IMG/VR virus record: IMGVR_UViG_3300022935_000010
Location: 1 to 64,000 of that record
Length of the DNA stretch: 64,000 nucleotides
From: a virus
Reading direction: 5' to 3' (one strand)
The notes under the pieces were generated by a model. That model ran no database searches. It worked only from the letters and a program-made list of their open reading frames with translations, and had not been told where the DNA came from. Positions 23,500 through 36,159 of the stretch are shown here, piece after piece. The stretch's first letter is position 1, and each line of letters begins with the position of its first letter. The translations under genes and the position numbers were made by a program.

Positions 23500-24117
23500 A
23501 TGGCAAAAGAAAAGAATATTCAAGTTTTAGCTGAAAGCTTCATTCAGACTAAAGGAGAGAGGGAATTCCGGCCTCTCTATGAAAGGGTAAAACCCGGAGT
23601 ACTAAACCACTGTTATGGAATTCTTAAAGACTTTGAGTTGGCCGAGGATGCTTTCTTAAATGCAATGTCAAAAGTATGGCAGAAGATAGATCAATATGAC
23701 CGCGAGAGGGGTAACTTTTCTACCTGGTGTTATAATATAGCTAGGAACGAATCTCTTTTACTTCTTAAGAGCAGGAAGCGATATATTTCACAAACTTCTG
23801 AAGAGATGGAGTACACTTCGGCGAAAGCTGAGGAAAGAAACCCTTCTTATGATATAGAAGACGACCCTCTCTGGGAATTTCTTTGTGGAGGAAATGATAT
23901 TGACGATGTTTATGAACAAGTCATCGATGAGATCAAAGACCTTCCTCTTATCTATCGGGATATTATGATTGATCGTGAGATTAATGGAATGAAATACAAA
24001 GATATAGCCGATAAGTATGGAATAAAGAAGAGGTCTATTGCTACAAGAATTAGAAGAGCCCGTACTAAAATCCGAAAGAAAATGGAGGATGCTATGGGAA
24101 AATCTGATTTTAAATAA
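23500..24117 (+). CDS. ECF-type RNA polymerase sigma factor
   Basis: Region 2 (AEDAFL..VW.KIDQYD..FSTWCYNIARN) and region 4 HTH (GMKYKDIADKYGI..RIRRAR). Confidence 0.88.
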   Translation: MAKEKNIQVLAESFIQTKGEREFRPLYERVKPGVLNHCYGILKDFELAEDAFLNAMSKVWQKIDQYDRERGNFSTWCYNIARNESLLLLKSRKRYISQTSEEMEYTSAKAEERNPSYDIEDDPLWEFLCGGNDIDDVYEQVIDEIKDLPLIYRDIMIDREINGMKYKDIADKYGIKKRSIATRIRRARTKIRKKMEDAMGKSDFK

Positions 24118-28345: not shown

Positions 28346-28407
28346 GTTTTTCCAAAAAATATGATTTGGAAGAATATATAATGGAAAAGTTTCAATATCA
28401 CAGGTGT

Positions 28408-28438: not shown

Positions 28439-31231
28439 ATGGACTTACTTAATCAATTAAAAACTCTTAGGGAAACAACCACTAACCCTGAAGTTAGATC
28501 GATTTGCGAATCCCACATTAATAAAATACAAAATGGGGAATCTGTAAATGAATCCGCAATCCTTGAATCTGTTGACCAGGTAGTAAAGGAAAGTGAAGGC
28601 GAAACCGCTGCAAATCCTATCGAAATGCTAAGACAGCAAGAAATAGAAAGATCTAAATCAGCAGCTCAAAAACTAATGGAATCTTGGGGTGGTATTGGAT
28701 CTAATACCTCTAAAAATTCTGGATCTTATGTAGATGGTAAGAAAGATGATTCTGTTGAAGTTACTAATATTTCTGAGAGTCTTAAGGAGGTGGCAGAAAA
28801 GGATCCTTCAGCTAAAGCATTCATTGATTCACAGGCAGTTAATAATCTTGGTGTATACGAGTCTATTCTATCTTTGAAAGGCACTGGCATTTACGAGCAT
28901 CCGAATGTAAAAATCCTTTGCGAGAAATTTACTCATCTTTTAAAGAACAATAATACCCCTGAATTTTTATTAGCTGAGGCATTTGTCCAGGAGCTACAAA
29001 ACTTCAACTGGGATAACAAAGTAAAATCAGCAGTAGAGACAATTAAGGAAAACGTCGCTTCGCTAAGACCTGAGATTGAGGTTTCAAAGGCTTTATATTC
29101 TATTGAAAAGAACGCTGGTGCTGATTTCTATTCTCCAGTAACAGAATCTCTGAATAAGTGGTTGATATCAGAGAATAAGTCCGTTTCACTTTTGTCCAAA
29201 GAGATCTCGAGATGGTCTTTTAACCCGACGGTAAGAAATCTTGTTAATACGCTTTCTTTAATGGAATCCTCAGAGTCTAAGCTAAGTATACCGGTTAACA
29301 ATGGTAATTCTTCTGTGAGGAAAGTTTATTCTCCAGTACACGTTTCTGGTGGTAAGACAGTATTTACTATTGGTAGTAATGTATTTGAAGGTAATTCTGA
29401 GGGAATCAAGAGACTCTCGAATGTTGAATACTCTGCTCTGCCAGAGTCATTTAAAACTTTGTTAGGGTCATTTTACTCTCCGATGGTTAAAATTAACGAA
29501 AGCGGGCTAAGTTTCTATGTTGGAAACAGCAGCTTCAAGATTGTGGAAGAGTCTGACTCTGTATCAATCTATTCTAAAGAGAATAAGATTAACTTTAGTG
29601 ACACAACTCAATTGGCAAAGCAGATAGCATTAGAAATATCTGGAAGCTTGGGAGTTAATGAGTCGAAAGCAGTTTCTGACATCATTAATCTTTATGAAAA
29701 CTTCTCAAATGTTGTTGAGCTTGATTTTGCTAAAAGGTTAGAATCTAAAGTTTTCGAAGGTGTATCAGTAAACTTGATTAAATGGAACTCAAACCTTTAT
29801 CTTAACAGGATCAACGAAGGAATGAACGAGAATTCTTTATTCCAAGTAAATGGTACGCAAGCTACTTCAATGGTTAAGGATCTTATGAAATATGATATTT
29901 CTGAAGGATTAACTGAATTCTTGGACGGTGAGAATAGAATTAAGTCAATTATGCTTAATGATAGAAAGCAAATTATTGACAATATCGCTATTGTAGAAAA
30001 TGAGATCAATAAGATCTCACAAGCAATGGCTACCAACCCACTTTACGAAAACTCTAAGGAAATGGCAAGAGCCAAGCATATGCTTGAGCAGGAGCTATCT
30101 TCGCTTAGGAAAAAATGGTCGGCTGTTAACGAGGAGATCGAAAAAATAGAATCTTCTTCTGTTGAAATGGAGGATTTAAACGAGGATCAAAAATTCACCG
30201 TTGGTGATTACGTAAAGGTAAAGGAGTCCGGAAATACAGGAAAGATTATTTCTATGGATAGTACGTCAGGTTCTTACACTGTACTAATGGATAACGGAAG
30301 AACCGGTGATTTCAGAATGGATGAAATCGTTGACATTGAGGAAGCTCTAAAATCTGCTGGTGAAGAAAATCAGGAAGCTGATGAAACTCAAGAGGAGGTT
30401 AAAGAGAACGAAACACCGATAGAAACTGCTGAAGAAAATACAGAGGATGCTTTGGAAGAGTCTTCTCAGGATATGGCAGTAGCTCCGGAGAACAAAACAG
30501 CATCTGAAAAGGATAAAACTCCAGCTTCTACACTAAAGGCAAATACTTCTGAAGCACCTGCAGCTAAGGATCAAGATGAAGCTGGTAAAAAAGATATCGA
30601 GAAAGAAGACCACGCTAATTTAGAAGAAGCTCCTGAAGGAAGCGAAAAGGAAACTGATTATAGCGTTAAGCTTAAGGATTCTTTGGTTGATAAGATTGGG
30701 TATAACGTAAATGAAAATACAGAGGAAGTGGAGTCATCAGATAACGAAATGGCTACAGCTCCTTCCGAAGGAAATTCGGAGTTGTCTGAAAGAGATGTTG
30801 AAAACACAGATCAGCAATTAGCAGAAGCACCGGGTGGAAGATCTCATGCGGATTATGAGGTAAAATCAGTTAAAGCTGAAGAGTCAAATCCTGACATGGT
30901 AAAAACAGACTCAGACATGGCATCTGCTCCTGGAGATGGTACTGACAAGGAATTACATCACGAAGTTGGCGATGAGATGGGATATAACCTTGATGAGGCT
31001 GATGATATGGAAAAAACAGATCAGCAATTATCAGTTGCCCCTGGTGGTGAGCACAAAGCAGAATATGATGTTGAAGTTGCCAAGGCAGAAAAAGCAGCAG
31101 CCGATATCATGAAAACTAACCAGGAATTAGCAGAAGCACCAGCAGCTGGTACTGAAGCAGAAACTGATTTAGAAGTTAACCCAGAAATGGGATATAACAT
31201 TGACGAAAGCGAGGAGTCAAAAAAAAACTAA
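28439..31231 (+). CDS. Large acidic head/core protein with SH3/KOW-like domain and C-terminal Ala-Pro repeats; possible -1 frameshift extension to 31407
   Basis: Many (I/L/V)xES sites, FTVGDYVKVKESGNTGKII domain, repeats MAVAPE/LEEAPEG/MATAPSEG/LAEAPGG. Confidence 0.7.
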   Translation: MDLLNQLKTLRETTTNPEVRSICESHINKIQNGESVNESAILESVDQVVKESEGETAANPIEMLRQQEIERSKSAAQKLMESWGGIGSNTSKNSGSYVDGKKDDSVEVTNISESLKEVAEKDPSAKAFIDSQAVNNLGVYESILSLKGTGIYEHPNVKILCEKFTHLLKNNNTPEFLLAEAFVQELQNFNWDNKVKSAVETIKENVASLRPEIEVSKALYSIEKNAGADFYSPVTESLNKWLISENKSVSLLSKEISRWSFNPTVRNLVNTLSLMESSESKLSIPVNNGNSSVRKVYSPVHVSGGKTVFTIGSNVFEGNSEGIKRLSNVEYSALPESFKTLLGSFYSPMVKINESGLSFYVGNSSFKIVEESDSVSIYSKENKINFSDTTQLAKQIALEISGSLGVNESKAVSDIINLYENFSNVVELDFAKRLESKVFEGVSVNLIKWNSNLYLNRINEGMNENSLFQVNGTQATSMVKDLMKYDISEGLTEFLDGENRIKSIMLNDRKQIIDNIAIVENEINKISQAMATNPLYENSKEMARAKHMLEQELSSLRKKWSAVNEEIEKIESSSVEMEDLNEDQKFTVGDYVKVKESGNTGKIISMDSTSGSYTVLMDNGRTGDFRMDEIVDIEEALKSAGEENQEADETQEEVKENETPIETAEENTEDALEESSQDMAVAPENKTASEKDKTPASTLKANTSEAPAAKDQDEAGKKDIEKEDHANLEEAPEGSEKETDYSVKLKDSLVDKIGYNVNENTEEVESSDNEMATAPSEGNSELSERDVENTDQQLAEAPGGRSHADYEVKSVKAEESNPDMVKTDSDMASAPGDGTDKELHHEVGDEMGYNLDEADDMEKTDQQLSVAPGGEHKAEYDVEVAKAEKAAADIMKTNQELAEAPAAGTEAETDLEVNPEMGYNIDESEESKKN

Positions 31232-31410
31232 GAAAAATACTTAGTAAAGTTTGGTCTTTTGCTCCTACGGGAGAGGAGCAATCTGAATCTCCAGAGCCTT
31301 TCGTCGATAATATCGAAGATAAAATGAGCGTCGCCCCAGATGGAAAGGAACCTACTGGGGACACGCTCATTTCTTCTGAAGATGGTACCGAAGAGGATAA
31401 GGCTTAGGTC

Positions 31411-31438
31411 GAAACTAACCTCGAGGTTTAAACTAAAA
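31411..31438 (+). promoter_or_regulatory. Putative ECF-type promoter GAAAC-N18-TAAAA driving the late sigma gene
   Basis: Recurring motif 20 nt upstream of 31459. Confidence 0.65.
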
Positions 31439-31458: not shown

Positions 31459-31818
31459 ATGGCAAAGGCTTATGTAAGGAATAAAGATCTGATGGCTGCA
31501 GTATTGGAGTCAAAGGAAAAAGGTGAACTCACACCTGAGACTATAGAGATGTTTGGCCTAATGGTTCAAGGTATATCTAAGAAGATGGCTTACCGGGATC
31601 CTGATGATAAAGCAGACTGTATGGCTTTTGCTATGGAGGACCTTTGCAAATATTGGAATAGGTTCAATCCAGAAAAATCTAATAACCCCTTTGCATACTT
31701 TACACAGATAGCTAAAAATGGTTTTGCTAAAGGATGGAAAAAAATACATCCACCAAAAGCTCCAAAAACTATTCCTTTTTCATACATAACCGGAGATGAC
31801 AATACGTATAATGTGTAG
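31459..31818 (+). CDS. Late-transcription sigma factor (T4 gp55-like)
   Basis: YVRNKDL...KYWNRFNPEKSNNPFAYFTQIA hallmark of gp55 family. Confidence 0.85.
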   Translation: MAKAYVRNKDLMAAVLESKEKGELTPETIEMFGLMVQGISKKMAYRDPDDKADCMAFAMEDLCKYWNRFNPEKSNNPFAYFTQIAKNGFAKGWKKIHPPKAPKTIPFSYITGDDNTYNV

Positions 31819-31820
31819 AA

Positions 31821-32306
31821 ATGCCGGATATAAAAAAAATAAAACCCAACGGGGATTATAAGTCTGGACTATATGTAGCTCAAAACCCAGACAAATATAT
31901 CGGCGACGTTCATAACATAATATGTAGATCCTCGTGGGAATTTAGATTTTGTCGCTATTGTGACAATAATGAAAAAATCCTTAAATGGAGTTCTGAACCT
32001 ATATCAATTCCTTATTACAATCCATTAGATAAGAAAGAGCATCAGTATAATGTGGATTTTTATATGCAGGTCCTTAAAGATGATGGACAAACACAGGATT
32101 GGATAATAGAGGTAAAGCCAGAAAAGCACTTTAAGAGACCGATTCTAGAGGGAAATAGCACACTCAAAAAGCTTAAGTCTTATAATCACAAGATGCAAAT
32201 ATGGATTACCAACCAAGCAAAATTTAAAGCGGCTCAGAGATGGGCAGATGCTAGAGGCTATAAATTCGGCGTGGTTGATGAGAATTTTTTATTTAAGAGC
32301 AAGTGA
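31821..32306 (+). CDS. Head completion nuclease (T4 gp4-like, TnsA-like endonuclease)
   Basis: NPDKYIGD, RSSWE, WSSEPISIPY, YNVDF, IEVKP, NQAKFKAA. Confidence 0.88.
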   Translation: MPDIKKIKPNGDYKSGLYVAQNPDKYIGDVHNIICRSSWEFRFCRYCDNNEKILKWSSEPISIPYYNPLDKKEHQYNVDFYMQVLKDDGQTQDWIIEVKPEKHFKRPILEGNSTLKKLKSYNHKMQIWITNQAKFKAAQRWADARGYKFGVVDENFLFKSK

Positions 32307-32942: not shown

Positions 32943-34553
32943 ATGGCCGGATTTAACGAAAATCAAGAAGGAAGCCCAATATTCCAGAGAATACGAGAGT
33001 CTGTAAAGTCTCTTAGTAACTTTGGTATGAGATATGGTGATATGGTGATTAAGAACTCGCAAGCTATCGGGTCGATAGAAGCTGAGTTCATGAAAAAGCA
33101 AGCTATTGACGATGAAAGCTTGCTTTATTCTTTAGGAAGGCAAGACACTACAACCAGGCAGTTTATTAGTTATTATGATAAAGATTATGCTGGTAAAAGG
33201 GATTATCTAAGAAAGTTTGCTTTAAATCCTGAAATTGAGTACATCCTGGATACCGTTTGTGATGAAGCTATAACTTTCGATCCCCAAAACTTCTTCGCAC
33301 ATCCTGCATTCCTAAACTTAACTGACGTAAAGGACAAAGTAAAGGATAGAATCGACGAAAACTTTAAAAAGCTGTACGACATGTTCGGCTTTACTGATGA
33401 TATAAGTGCTTGGCAATACTTCAGGCAATTGATGGTTGATGGATTCCTTGCCTTTGAGATTGTATATAATGACAAGGGTAAGGAGATAATAGGATTTAAG
33501 GAATTAGATGCTACAACTCTAATGCCTTCTGTTGAAAAACAGCCAGACGGAACATATCTAAATGTTTGGTATCAGTATCCTAATGATATTAACAAGAGAA
33601 GGATGCTCTATGATTCTCAGGTTATTTATATTTCTTTTGCCAAAGGTAATACAGTTTCTCGGGTTAGTTATGTTGAAAGACTTATTAGGCCTTACAACAT
33701 TCTAAGAATTATAGAATACACCAGGGTTATTTGGTCTGTAATGAACGCATCTTTTAGAATGAAGATGACGGTACCAATTGGATCGAGGTCACCTCAAAAG
33801 TCAATGCAGACCTTAGGTGAATTGATGAGTATCTACAAAGAAGATATTAGGTTTAATGATGAGAGCGGGGAATTAACTGTAGATGGTAGACCTAAAATAC
33901 AGTTCTACAAAAATTACCTTATGCCTTCTGGTGTAAATGGTACTCCAACTATAGAGCCTATAAATAATGCTGGACCAAACCTTAACGACCCTCAACCGCT
34001 TGCTTACTTTTATGACAAGCTGGTTCAAGAATCGAAGGTTCCTTTTTCTAGATTCCAGGGTCCTGACGGCGGATCGATTGGAAATTATTCAAATGGCGCT
34101 GAAGGACTTGATAAGGAAGAAATAAGATTTGCCAAGTTTATTACTAGGCTTAGATCTATTTTCCAAGATGTCCTTGTTAAGCCACTTTGGATACAGATGT
34201 GTAAAGACTTCCCCGAGCTGGAGAAGGATTATTTGTTCAAGAGTCAGTTGGGCTTGGAATTTGTTTCTGATAATCCGTTTAGGATAAACCAGGAGATAGA
34301 AACCATGCTTAAAAAGAAGGAGCAAATAGATGGCATGTACACTTTAACCGACGACTCCGGTGAGCCCTTCTTCTCTTTAGCTTATTTAATTGAATCCCAT
34401 CTGGGTATGAATGCTGATGATATTAAAGGTAATAAGGAGGCGATTCAAAAAAGGAAGGAAGAAGAAGCTAAAAAGGCTGAAGAAGAAAAGGATGAAGATG
34501 AAGCACAGGAACCCGCAGAGGAATCAACGGAGGAAGCCCCTCCTCAAGAATAA
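32943..34553 (+). CDS. Portal protein 1 (T4 gp20-like)
   Basis: PEIEYILDTVCDEAI, FRQLMVDG, SYVERLIRPYNILRIIE, EEIRFAKFITRLRSIF. Confidence 0.88.
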   Translation: MAGFNENQEGSPIFQRIRESVKSLSNFGMRYGDMVIKNSQAIGSIEAEFMKKQAIDDESLLYSLGRQDTTTRQFISYYDKDYAGKRDYLRKFALNPEIEYILDTVCDEAITFDPQNFFAHPAFLNLTDVKDKVKDRIDENFKKLYDMFGFTDDISAWQYFRQLMVDGFLAFEIVYNDKGKEIIGFKELDATTLMPSVEKQPDGTYLNVWYQYPNDINKRRMLYDSQVIYISFAKGNTVSRVSYVERLIRPYNILRIIEYTRVIWSVMNASFRMKMTVPIGSRSPQKSMQTLGELMSIYKEDIRFNDESGELTVDGRPKIQFYKNYLMPSGVNGTPTIEPINNAGPNLNDPQPLAYFYDKLVQESKVPFSRFQGPDGGSIGNYSNGAEGLDKEEIRFAKFITRLRSIFQDVLVKPLWIQMCKDFPELEKDYLFKSQLGLEFVSDNPFRINQEIETMLKKKEQIDGMYTLTDDSGEPFFSLAYLIESHLGMNADDIKGNKEAIQKRKEEEAKKAEEEKDEDEAQEPAEESTEEAPPQE

Positions 34554-34563
34554 GTAATAAAGG

Positions 34564-36159
34564 ATGGCAGGATTTTTAGATTACGTAGCAGAAAGATCTT
34601 TCCTTGGGAATCTTTATAAGAATTTATCCAAGGTGGGGAGATTTGGTATGGAGTACGAAGACATGGTTATTCGTAACTCCCAAGCTATTGGTGCTACAGA
34701 ATCTAATTTCTTTAATGAGCAAGGTACAGGATTCACTGAGAATAATGCTTTTTATTGGACTCTTGGTTATCAAGATACTAAGGTAAGAAAGTATATAGCA
34801 TATTTCGATAAGGACTATTTAGGCAAAAGAGACTTCCTTAGGAAATTTTCCCTTAACGGCGAAATTGATTTTATCTTAGATACACTTACAGACGATGCTA
34901 TAAATTATGATGACAAGAATTTTATTGGGTATCCATCTCTTTCTAATATAGACCTAAAGCCTAATATTATAGATAAACTAGACGAAAACTATAGAAACAT
35001 GTATATGCTTTTTGGTTTTCAACAGGGAATACTAGCTTGGCAATATTTTAAGCAATTTCTTATAGATGGATTTCTTGCTTTTGAAATCGTATATTCCACC
35101 GACGGTAAAAAAATAGTTGGTTTTAAAGAGCTAGACCCTACTTCATTGCAACCTGCTACACAACCTCAACCAAATGGTGAGTATCAACAAATATGGATTC
35201 AGTATCCTGGTGATAGCAAGATGACCAGAAATCTTAAAAGCGAGCAGGTTATCTATATTTCTTACGCAAAGGGTAATACTATATCTAGGGTAAGCTATGT
35301 AGAACGTTTAATTAGATCCTATAATATTCTAAGAATCATGGAAAACACCAGGGTTATATGGAATGTTATGAATGCATCATACAGACTAAAATTTGTAATT
35401 CCTGTGGGTTCCCAATCTCAACAAAAGGCAATGCAGACATTGGGACAGCTTATGTCTATTTACAAGGAAGAAATGGAAATAAACGATTCTTCGGGTGAAC
35501 TCACTGTAAATGGTAGACCGAAGGTTCAATTCTATAAGAACTACTTATTTCCGGAAAAAGATGGGCAATCTCCCCAAATTGAAACATTAGATCCTAATGG
35601 TCCTGATTTCAATGTAATGGATAACGTAATTTATTTCTACAATAAGCTTAAACAGGATTCAAAGATACCATATGCAAGGTTTGCTTTCAGAAACGGAACT
35701 CCTGCTAATTATCAAATTAGCATCGACCAATTGGAAAGGGATGAGATTAGATTTGAGAAATTCCTAACAAGGCTCAGATCTATTTTCCAAGAAATATTGG
35801 TGAAACCCTTGTATATACAAATGTGTCTTGATTTTCCTGAATTATCTAAGGACAGATCTTTTAAATCAAATTTAGGCCTAACTTATGTTAGGGAGAATCT
35901 TTTTGAAGAATTTATACAGCTTCAGAATTATACTAAGAGAGCACAGTTTGTAAATGATCTTGGTGAGATGAAGCAGAAGATTGGTGAAGAGGAAGAACCT
36001 TATTTTGATAAGAATTTCCTAATAAAGAGGTATCTTGGACTTACGATGGACGAGTATAAGAAAAACGAGAAGTATAAGGAGATGGAGCAGAAAAAGGCCG
36101 AGGAAAAGGCTAAGGAAGCTGGAGGTGAGGAGGAATCTTCAGATAGTTTCACACTATAA
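34564..36159 (+). CDS. Portal protein 2 (paralogue)
   Basis: Same motifs: EIDFILDTLTDDAI, SYVERLIRSYNILRIME, RDEIRFEKFLTRLRSIF. Confidence 0.88.
   Translation: MAGFLDYVAERSFLGNLYKNLSKVGRFGMEYEDMVIRNSQAIGATESNFFNEQGTGFTENNAFYWTLGYQDTKVRKYIAYFDKDYLGKRDFLRKFSLNGEIDFILDTLTDDAINYDDKNFIGYPSLSNIDLKPNIIDKLDENYRNMYMLFGFQQGILAWQYFKQFLIDGFLAFEIVYSTDGKKIVGFKELDPTSLQPATQPQPNGEYQQIWIQYPGDSKMTRNLKSEQVIYISYAKGNTISRVSYVERLIRSYNILRIMENTRVIWNVMNASYRLKFVIPVGSQSQQKAMQTLGQLMSIYKEEMEINDSSGELTVNGRPKVQFYKNYLFPEKDGQSPQIETLDPNGPDFNVMDNVIYFYNKLKQDSKIPYARFAFRNGTPANYQISIDQLERDEIRFEKFLTRLRSIFQEILVKPLYIQMCLDFPELSKDRSFKSNLGLTYVRENLFEEFIQLQNYTKRAQFVNDLGEMKQKIGEEEEPYFDKNFLIKRYLGLTMDEYKKNEKYKEMEQKKAEEKAKEAGGEEESSDSFTL
36132..36159 (+). 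promoter_or_regulatory. Putative ECF-type promoter variant GGAAT-N18-TATAA
   Basis: Same spacing as the GAAAC motif, upstream of heptose kinase gene. Confidence 0.45.

Follow-up and report, generated by a model that had tools for sequence, protein, structure and literature searches.

A conserved nine-adenine run and the −1 reading frame behind it suggest two C-terminal isoforms of a huge-phage protein

What does a gene encode if it ends at a stop codon directly behind a run of nine adenines, and an open frame continues from that run in the −1 phase? This question is raised by a gene for a 930-residue protein in the IMG/VR virus record IMGVR_UViG_3300022935_000010, of which positions 1 to 64,000 were analysed. 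This 64,000-nucleotide stretch, referred to as the window, has a guanine-cytosine content of 37.6% and is part of a 107-kb metagenomic contig with an estimated completeness of 39%. From the sequence of the gene and of its relatives, we consider programmed recoding at the nine-A run, giving two C-terminal isoforms of the protein, very likely. How the frame would be changed, by the RNA polymerase or by the ribosome, is weighed below.

The recoding site and its conservation

The end of the gene comprises the following features:

28439..31231, plus strand: main (0-frame) open reading frame (ORF), 930 amino acids from the ATG used by homologues; the predicted short isoform, ending in ...ESKKN followed by TAA
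31219..31227, plus strand: nine-A run, invariant in the window sequence and its relatives; the probable recoding site
31222..31228, plus strand: slippery heptamer A_AAA_AAC in the X_XXY_YYZ phase of the upstream ORF
31229..31231, plus strand: 0-frame stop codon TAA directly after the run, read from the window sequence
31228..31407, plus strand: −1 frame extension of 59 codons plus TAG (31405-31407), delineated by translation, peptide alignment and coding signature

Counted from an in-frame GTG at 28406, the upstream ORF has 941 codons; the consensus start of the homologues is a methionine 11 codons further in, at 28439. The ORF ends with TCA (31217-31219), AAA AAA AAC (31220-31228) and TAA (31229-31231), exactly as given in the initial annotation of this DNA, including the in-phase heptamer at 31222-31228. 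A second in-phase heptamer, A_AAA_AAA at 31219-31225, overlaps the first. The same annotation had proposed a 59-residue −1 extension reaching 31407 with two more copies of the protein's own repeats, which was reproduced by translation from 31228. The two copies are the x-A-P-x-G motifs FAPTG (31258-31272) and VAPDG (31330-31344), of the same kind as the repeats in the acidic tail of the main protein.

As the run is the sole homopolymer of at least nine bases within the window, and as the arrangement is kept in every relative examined, it represents more than chance. Separately from this, runs of five, six, seven, eight and nine A's occur 150, 53, 22, 3 and 1 times in the window, those of eight at 31832, 51401 and 61834. 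The count falls more steeply from seven to eight than in the preceding steps; long A runs appear to be depleted, which would be expected if a run of at least eight bases carried a cost in this system.

Searches with the main protein found 256 homologues, none of them functionally named. The 120 listed ones share 43-93% identity and all terminate in KKN, although the residues preceding this end vary by clade. On the DNA level, the window was compared with 75 related viral loci that include a complete gene end (41-94% protein identity). All of these sequences, which lie on related viral contigs, read xxA AAA AAA AAY with an immediate stop codon. Within this frame the details vary: the last codon of the run is AAC in 63 and AAT in 13 of the 76 loci, the stop is TAA in 70 and TGA in 6, and the preceding codon is tcA, ttA, ctA or gtA, so that the run always comprises nine A's. 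The −1 ORF spans 50-62 codons, with the single exception of locus L093 (77 codons). One additional locus, L094, keeps the nine A's in a different phase (GA-A AAA AAA A-CC) and has its 0-frame stop 14 codons downstream; it likewise requires a −1 shift to enter the extension.

A scan of the viral contig collection using a pattern with degenerate flanks gave nine A's in 46 contigs, ten in none and eight in none. The 46 contigs, all of them consensus assemblies, carry a different sample number in each name. The slippery site with its adjacent stop, which had been proposed from the window alone, thus recurs in 75 related loci, and neither a ten-A run nor a continuous ORF was found in its place. No fused form was found among the longer proteins searched with the extension peptide, which by itself is weak evidence.

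The codon usage of the gene further sets the run apart. An alignment of 59 distinct gene sequences contains 119 invariant amino-acid columns with degenerate codons, and only two of them use one codon in all 59 sequences: both lysine codons of the run. In the remaining ten invariant lysine columns AAA and AAG are mixed, and 71% of all lysine codons are AAA. By this comparison, selection acts on the synonymous sites of the nine-A run.

Coding character of the extension

To describe the region behind the run, 48 distinct peptides, encoded by 49 different extension DNAs, were aligned. The peptides share the conserved blocks LS+..[WF].FAP, P.FV and [ML]S.AP.GK, followed by an acidic end. Over the same nucleotide columns, the median pairwise ratio of nonsynonymous to synonymous substitution rates (dN/dS) is 0.28 in the −1 frame, compared to 1.11 and 1.43 in the other two frames, with the peptide-guided alignment lending the −1 frame a slight advantage that counts against this contrast. 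The column entropies of the three codon positions are 0.96, 0.72 and 1.44, the third position being the most variable. For the first 33 codons alone, which lie upstream of any start codon, the corresponding pN/pS is 0.48, compared to 0.93 and 1.16. Downstream of the first site, the 0 and +1 frames of the relatives are rich in stop codons.

Other routes into the extension were considered. In every locus the −1 frame is blocked 4-18 codons upstream of the run, and no ATG, GTG or TTG occurs before extension codon 24-33; nine distinct sequences have no such codon whatsoever. In the window, the first start codon is the ATG at codon 33. With no usable start and a −1 frame that is closed upstream, independent initiation of the extension is excluded. 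Readthrough of the stop codon was rejected since the 0 frame holds more stops and lacks conservation, and a +1 shift since the +1 frame ends after a few codons at all three sites of the family described below. Based on these observations, the extension is very probably translated, either after a −1 shift or from an mRNA with ten A's. The original proposal, that slippage on the nine A's in translation or transcription leads to two C-terminal isoforms, is supported by the conservation of the site together with the coding character of the extension.

Two more positions of the arrangement within the family

Profile searching for the N-terminal domain (~580 amino acids) added 341 more remote representatives. 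Many of them terminate in KKN or KKK plus 0-2 residues. In the whole family, the arrangement is found at three positions:

Site 1, at the extreme C-terminus: the window and 75 loci, plus L094; nine A's followed by C or T, then the stop; −1 ORF of 50-62 codons
Site 2, immediately N-terminal to the SH3-like domain: 24 of 24 loci; nine A's followed by G, with the stop 0-2 codons later; −1 ORF of 153-216 codons
Site 3, after the last A-P motif: 52 loci with nine A's and 4 with ten; nine A's followed by G, C or A, then the stop; −1 ORF of 80-84 codons

The subfamily with site 2 (L098-L121, e.g. L098:4050-4700) has a 0-frame ORF of ~520 amino acids, and its −1 ORF of ~200 amino acids encodes the SH3-like and C-terminal domains. 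The same two domains are found in frame, and without the nine-A run, in LR756500 and other members of the family. In the subfamily with site 3 (L169-L235, e.g. L169:3760-4040) the 0-frame ORF comprises ~780 amino acids, and the −1 ORF of ~82 codons encodes a conserved helical module. One of the 52 nine-A loci counted here, L232, is also a first-site locus that was already counted; its −1 ORF has 55 codons. In the four loci with ten A's, the tenth A has replaced the G behind the run and leaves the relation of the frames as it is. Six site-3 loci (including L175, L223, L178 and L179) lack the run: their lysine codons are interrupted, there is no −1 ORF, and a terminator follows directly after the gene. 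The run and the −1 ORF co-occur without exception among the loci examined.

Judged from these loci, the family appears to use the nine-A run and a −1 ORF as a general means of producing its proteins both with a C-terminal module and without one. It is unusual that one minimal signal, as read from these genes, recurs at three positions in homologous genes. A further-reaching interpretation, to which we give slightly less than even weight, would be that a protein family of huge phages, which probably infect Bacteroidota, recruited exactly nine A's, on which the RNA polymerase slips, at no fewer than three positions and thereby appended three unrelated C-terminal modules. If true, this would mean that modular programmed transcriptional slippage is widespread in double-stranded DNA phages, and that lineages losing a module also lost the run.

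Polymerase slippage or ribosomal frameshifting

All nine A's are invariant at all three sites; the first of them, the wobble position of a codon for serine, leucine, valine or glycine, is no exception. A slippery heptamer itself would need only six or seven A's. The position following the run can hold any of C, T, G or A and varies even between near-identical relatives, and the +1 frame closes within 1-9 codons at all three sites. The heptamer stressed in the initial annotation is present and in phase, but the conserved unit is the full run of nine A's. Because this unit is nine A's and not one particular heptamer, we give RNA polymerase slippage a modest preference over −1 ribosomal frameshifting as the route to the extension. 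The scarcity of runs of eight or more bases in the window and the lack of a conserved RNA structure downstream point in the same direction. Runs of nine A's or T's have a length that is visibly selected against or prone to slippage in many bacteria, and a nine-base run serves transcriptional slippage in dnaX of Thermus thermophilus and in several insertion sequence (IS) elements (PMC1088944).

In such a mechanism, standard decoding would stop at the TAA at 31229-31231 and yield the short form of 930 amino acids. In a fraction of expression events the frame downstream of 31219-31227 would become −1, and the shifted translation through 31228-31404 would add 59 residues with two more A-P motifs and the acidic end. 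Most likely, the polymerase would slip on the nine rA:dT pairs and add one untemplated A, so that the extension is reached by normal reading of an mRNA with ten A's. With eight A's in the transcript, as with the templated nine, translation would end within a few codons and the product would essentially be the short form.

The alternative that −1 ribosomal frameshifting is programmed at the site would provide the same isoforms, with the tRNAs slipping on A_AAA_AAA or A_AAA_AAC, aided by the slow adjacent stop. We regard it as possible though doubtful, and several observations speak for it or weigh against polymerase slippage. Every nine-A run contains an in-phase A_AAA_AAN heptamer, so that ribosomes could shift at each of the sites. 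In 76 of the 77 first-site loci the 0-frame stop lies immediately 3' of the heptamer, an arrangement that classically promotes ribosomal shifting. The second and the third of the three sites carry A_AAA_AAG, the best bacterial shift heptamer and the most shift-prone one in E. coli (PMC5009743), and IS1 provides a proven shift on A_AAA_AAC without a known stimulator (PMC4066793). A run of nine A's would also permit re-pairing of the tRNA in the E site. Furthermore, the run never exceeds nine A's at sites one and two, though a longer run would slip more, and the slippage threshold of nine comes from other bacteria and may not apply to the polymerase of the host, which is probably a member of the Bacteroidota. 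Ribosomal frameshifting is, on the other hand, made less likely by the invariance of the run, which at all three sites reaches three bases past the heptamer, by the lack of an adjacent stop in L094, and by the lack of conserved structure downstream: RNAalifold, applied to 30 diverse sequences, gave 0 consensus pairs. The two small hairpins that the initial annotation had noted at 31228-31244 and 31261-31279 do form in the fold of the window's own RNA, where they are unremarkable (z = −2.2), and they are not kept in the relatives. A candidate upstream stimulator resembling a Shine-Dalgarno sequence, GAGGAG in the window, was rejected, as it becomes GAAGAG or another sequence in relatives and is not conserved. 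The adjacent stop may take the place of such a stimulator. It plays no part in polymerase slippage, but could also be held in place by the overlap of the two frames. Polymerase slippage and ribosomal frameshifting could operate together.

Explanations without recoding have far less weight. The possibility that the run results from a homopolymer error in sequencing or assembly, and that the true genome has ten A's and one continuous ORF, deserves consideration in a metagenomic assembly, as homopolymers are error-prone on some platforms. Since the site has nine A's in all relatives, ten or eight in none of the scanned contigs, it is not an assembly error; the 46 contigs come from differently numbered samples, the window and the 75 loci selected by their protein all have nine A's with no fused protein found, and the same design is present at two other sites of the family. 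We thus regard this explanation as practically negligible. It is very improbable, too, that replication slippage toggles the DNA between nine and ten A's in the phage population and switches the extension on and off. Long homopolymers are mutable and four site-3 loci do have ten A's, but the frame relation there is unchanged, and among the consensus assemblies no length polymorphism was found at site 1 or at the 24 site-2 loci. A similarly low probability is assigned to the −1 ORF being an independent small gene, or a decaying, unexpressed remnant of a tail that was once in frame. The ATG at extension codon 33 in the window and the family members without any extension are in line with these explanations. 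However, conserved blocks with a coding signature lie upstream of this ATG, and nine distinct extension sequences have no start codon at all. A remnant would not retain an open frame, a dN/dS of 0.28 and invariant nine A's down to 41% identity.

The protein

Two further regions of the protein were delineated:

30209..30334, plus strand: SH3/Tudor/KOW-like beta-barrel after a long coiled-coil hairpin, based on a sub-threshold match to PF20297, the strands at 591-632 of the model, and Tudor/KOW chains
30401..31228 (start approximate), plus strand: acidic, probably disordered C-terminal tail with [LM]-[AS]-x-A-P-x-G and EMGYN repeats, based on the translation and the tails of 120 homologues

Residues 1-654 were modelled confidently with AlphaFold (predicted local distance difference test, pLDDT, 86.8; predicted template modelling score, pTM, 0.70). 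The model comprises a region of helices, a middle part rich in beta-strands, an extended coiled-coil hairpin and a small barrel. In a Foldseek search of the PDB, only the Tudor/KOW-like barrel was matched, with template modelling (TM) scores of 0.7-0.8 on the target and a root mean square deviation of ~1.6 Å. A VIA wide search, in which the large domains were part of the complete model, gave only generic coiled-coil hairpins with Z ~9, which is below the meaningful level for helical models. The ESM Atlas gave nothing beyond a cluster of the same kind as the protein itself (score 0.79). All matches among viral structures are uncharacterised proteins, and the relatives at structure level include proteins of the Tenacibaculum phages PTm1 and pT24. 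PHROGs and Pfam searches with the protein and nine remote homologues gave no annotated family, with the SH3-like match in Pfam remaining sub-threshold, and a Megablast search of the region against phage records gave no matches. The label "head protein" given in the initial annotation therefore finds no backing, as neither Pfam, PHROGs nor the fold supports any function.

As a separate observation, a remote homologue of the N-terminal domain (~25% identity) is found in the Prevotella Lak megaphages (MK250015-MK250029, e.g. MK250016.1:55524-56693).

The acidic A-P-repeat tail together with the extension, which contributes two more A-P motifs and the aromatic W.FAP block, resembles an array of short motifs for binding. 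By analogy to tau/gamma of dnaX and to G/GT of phage lambda, the production of forms with and without a module hints at an assembly or scaffolding factor.

Surroundings of the gene and host

All genes of the window are on one strand. Two features follow the extension:

31411..31429, plus strand: conserved element with the palindrome AACCTCGAGGTT at 31417-31428, just after the extension stop and kept in the window's clade
31459..31818, plus strand: next gene, encoding a gp55-like late sigma factor (phrog_234, 5e-15; Sigma70_r2 sub-threshold), 51 nucleotides after the extension stop

The AACCTCGAGGTT element is present as a single copy in the window, and in relatives it varies in a compensatory manner to CCCGGG, pointing to either an RNA hairpin or a site bound by a protein. 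As it lacks a T-tract, it is not a canonical terminator. A promoter had initially been assigned at 31411; the position is occupied by this palindromic element instead, and no plus-strand promoter of the sigma-70 type was called in the spacer. Downstream, the recoded unit is bounded by the gp55-like sigma gene.

The organisation behind the extension differs between clades. In the clade with the LSRNFYFAP-type extension (L076-L097), a strong intrinsic terminator consisting of a GC-rich hairpin and a T-run is located 0-40 nucleotides after the extension stop. It follows the extension stop and not the 0-frame stop, which speaks for recoding. In the clade ending in ...ELKKN, the next gene is 4-33 nucleotides away, behind a GATATATA-like motif.

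A gene resembling the sigma-70 family at 23500-24117 is the second sigma-like gene of the window. The presence of two such genes suggests, on the basis of their sequences, a phage-directed reprogramming of the host RNA polymerase, the enzyme that would slip on the nine A's. Further neighbours encode a head-closure protein, a ligase and a clamp loader, and the window has no tRNA genes. Two adjacent full-length genes, at 32943-34553 and 34564-36159, are both portal-like (phrog_213, ~1e-57).

The closest records to the portal are from metagenomic huge phages of 460-735 kb (LR7565xx) and from Prevotella Lak megaphages, and related contigs reach up to 434 kb. Together with the structural relatives in Tenacibaculum phages, this makes a host from the Bacteroidota plausible.

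Implications and comparison with known systems

If the extension is expressed as proposed, gene callers truncate the protein, as all 120 listed entries stop at KKN. Annotations in the sister subfamilies would lose a domain of ~200 amino acids, with proteins ending at ~520 amino acids, or the module of ~82 amino acids. Applying the rule "nine A's plus a −1 ORF" would correct the annotation of this conserved protein throughout an abundant lineage of huge phages from the environment. The family also offers a natural comparative series with three positions, four different following bases, one phase variant, and members without run and ORF. Such a series could separate polymerase slippage from ribosomal frameshifting in the hosts, which are probably Bacteroidota. 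Translation in Bacteroidota does not use Shine-Dalgarno pairing, and recoding in this phylum has, to our knowledge, been little studied. In the literature, no prior description of recoding in this protein family was found in a search that was not exhaustive.

Regarding the signal, the closest resemblance is to the slippage fusions of Thermus dnaX (tau/gamma) and of the orfA-orfB pairs of IS elements, which also have a nine-base run on the sense strand (A9 or T9) and no RNA stimulator (PMC1088944, PMC5009743). As in the present gene, stops lie near in the non-productive frames and the products share their N-terminus. In Thermus dnaX the slipped mRNAs lead to the shorter product, whereas here, as in mxiE and spa13 of Shigella and in the IS elements, they would lead to the longer one. 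A further difference from Thermus dnaX and the IS elements is that the gene belongs to a phage, and that slippage is here a prediction from the sequence.

The −1 ribosomal frameshifting of E. coli dnaX and of the IS1 and IS3 families shares with the present site the same heptamers in phase and a suppressed synonymous variation (PMC5009743, PMC4066793), and IS1 again has no known stimulator (PMC4066793). Conversely, dnaX and most IS3 sites have an upstream Shine-Dalgarno-like element and/or a downstream stem-loop or pseudoknot, none of which is conserved here. Unlike in dnaX, IS1 and IS3, the conservation spans nine A's and not seven, and the last base varies freely. Frame is also lost on iterated AAA codons when ribosomes slide on poly(A). 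In an E. coli system, this sliding was robust with eleven A's and gave little product with nine or ten (PMC4363877). As it is robust only from eleven A's, sliding is unlikely to be the main route here.

Among phages, a −1 shift near the 3' end of a gene that yields a minor, extended isoform is established for G/GT of lambda (PMC5009743). The shift sites of lambda G/GT and T7 10A/10B are, unlike the present one, not nine-A runs. The lambda pair is the tail assembly chaperone and the T7 pair the major capsid protein, and the protein of the window matches neither. In T7 10A/10B, a −1 shift near the 3' end likewise gives a minor isoform with a C-terminal extension. In both phage systems, as here, relatives keep the arrangement. 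A fixed ratio between the forms that have a module and those that lack it would follow the logic of tau/gamma and G/GT. More generally, the proposed recoding would match the logic of dnaX tau/gamma, IS orfA-orfB, mxiE, spa13, G/GT and 10A/10B, in which one gene gives two products in a ratio that is set by the slippery site.

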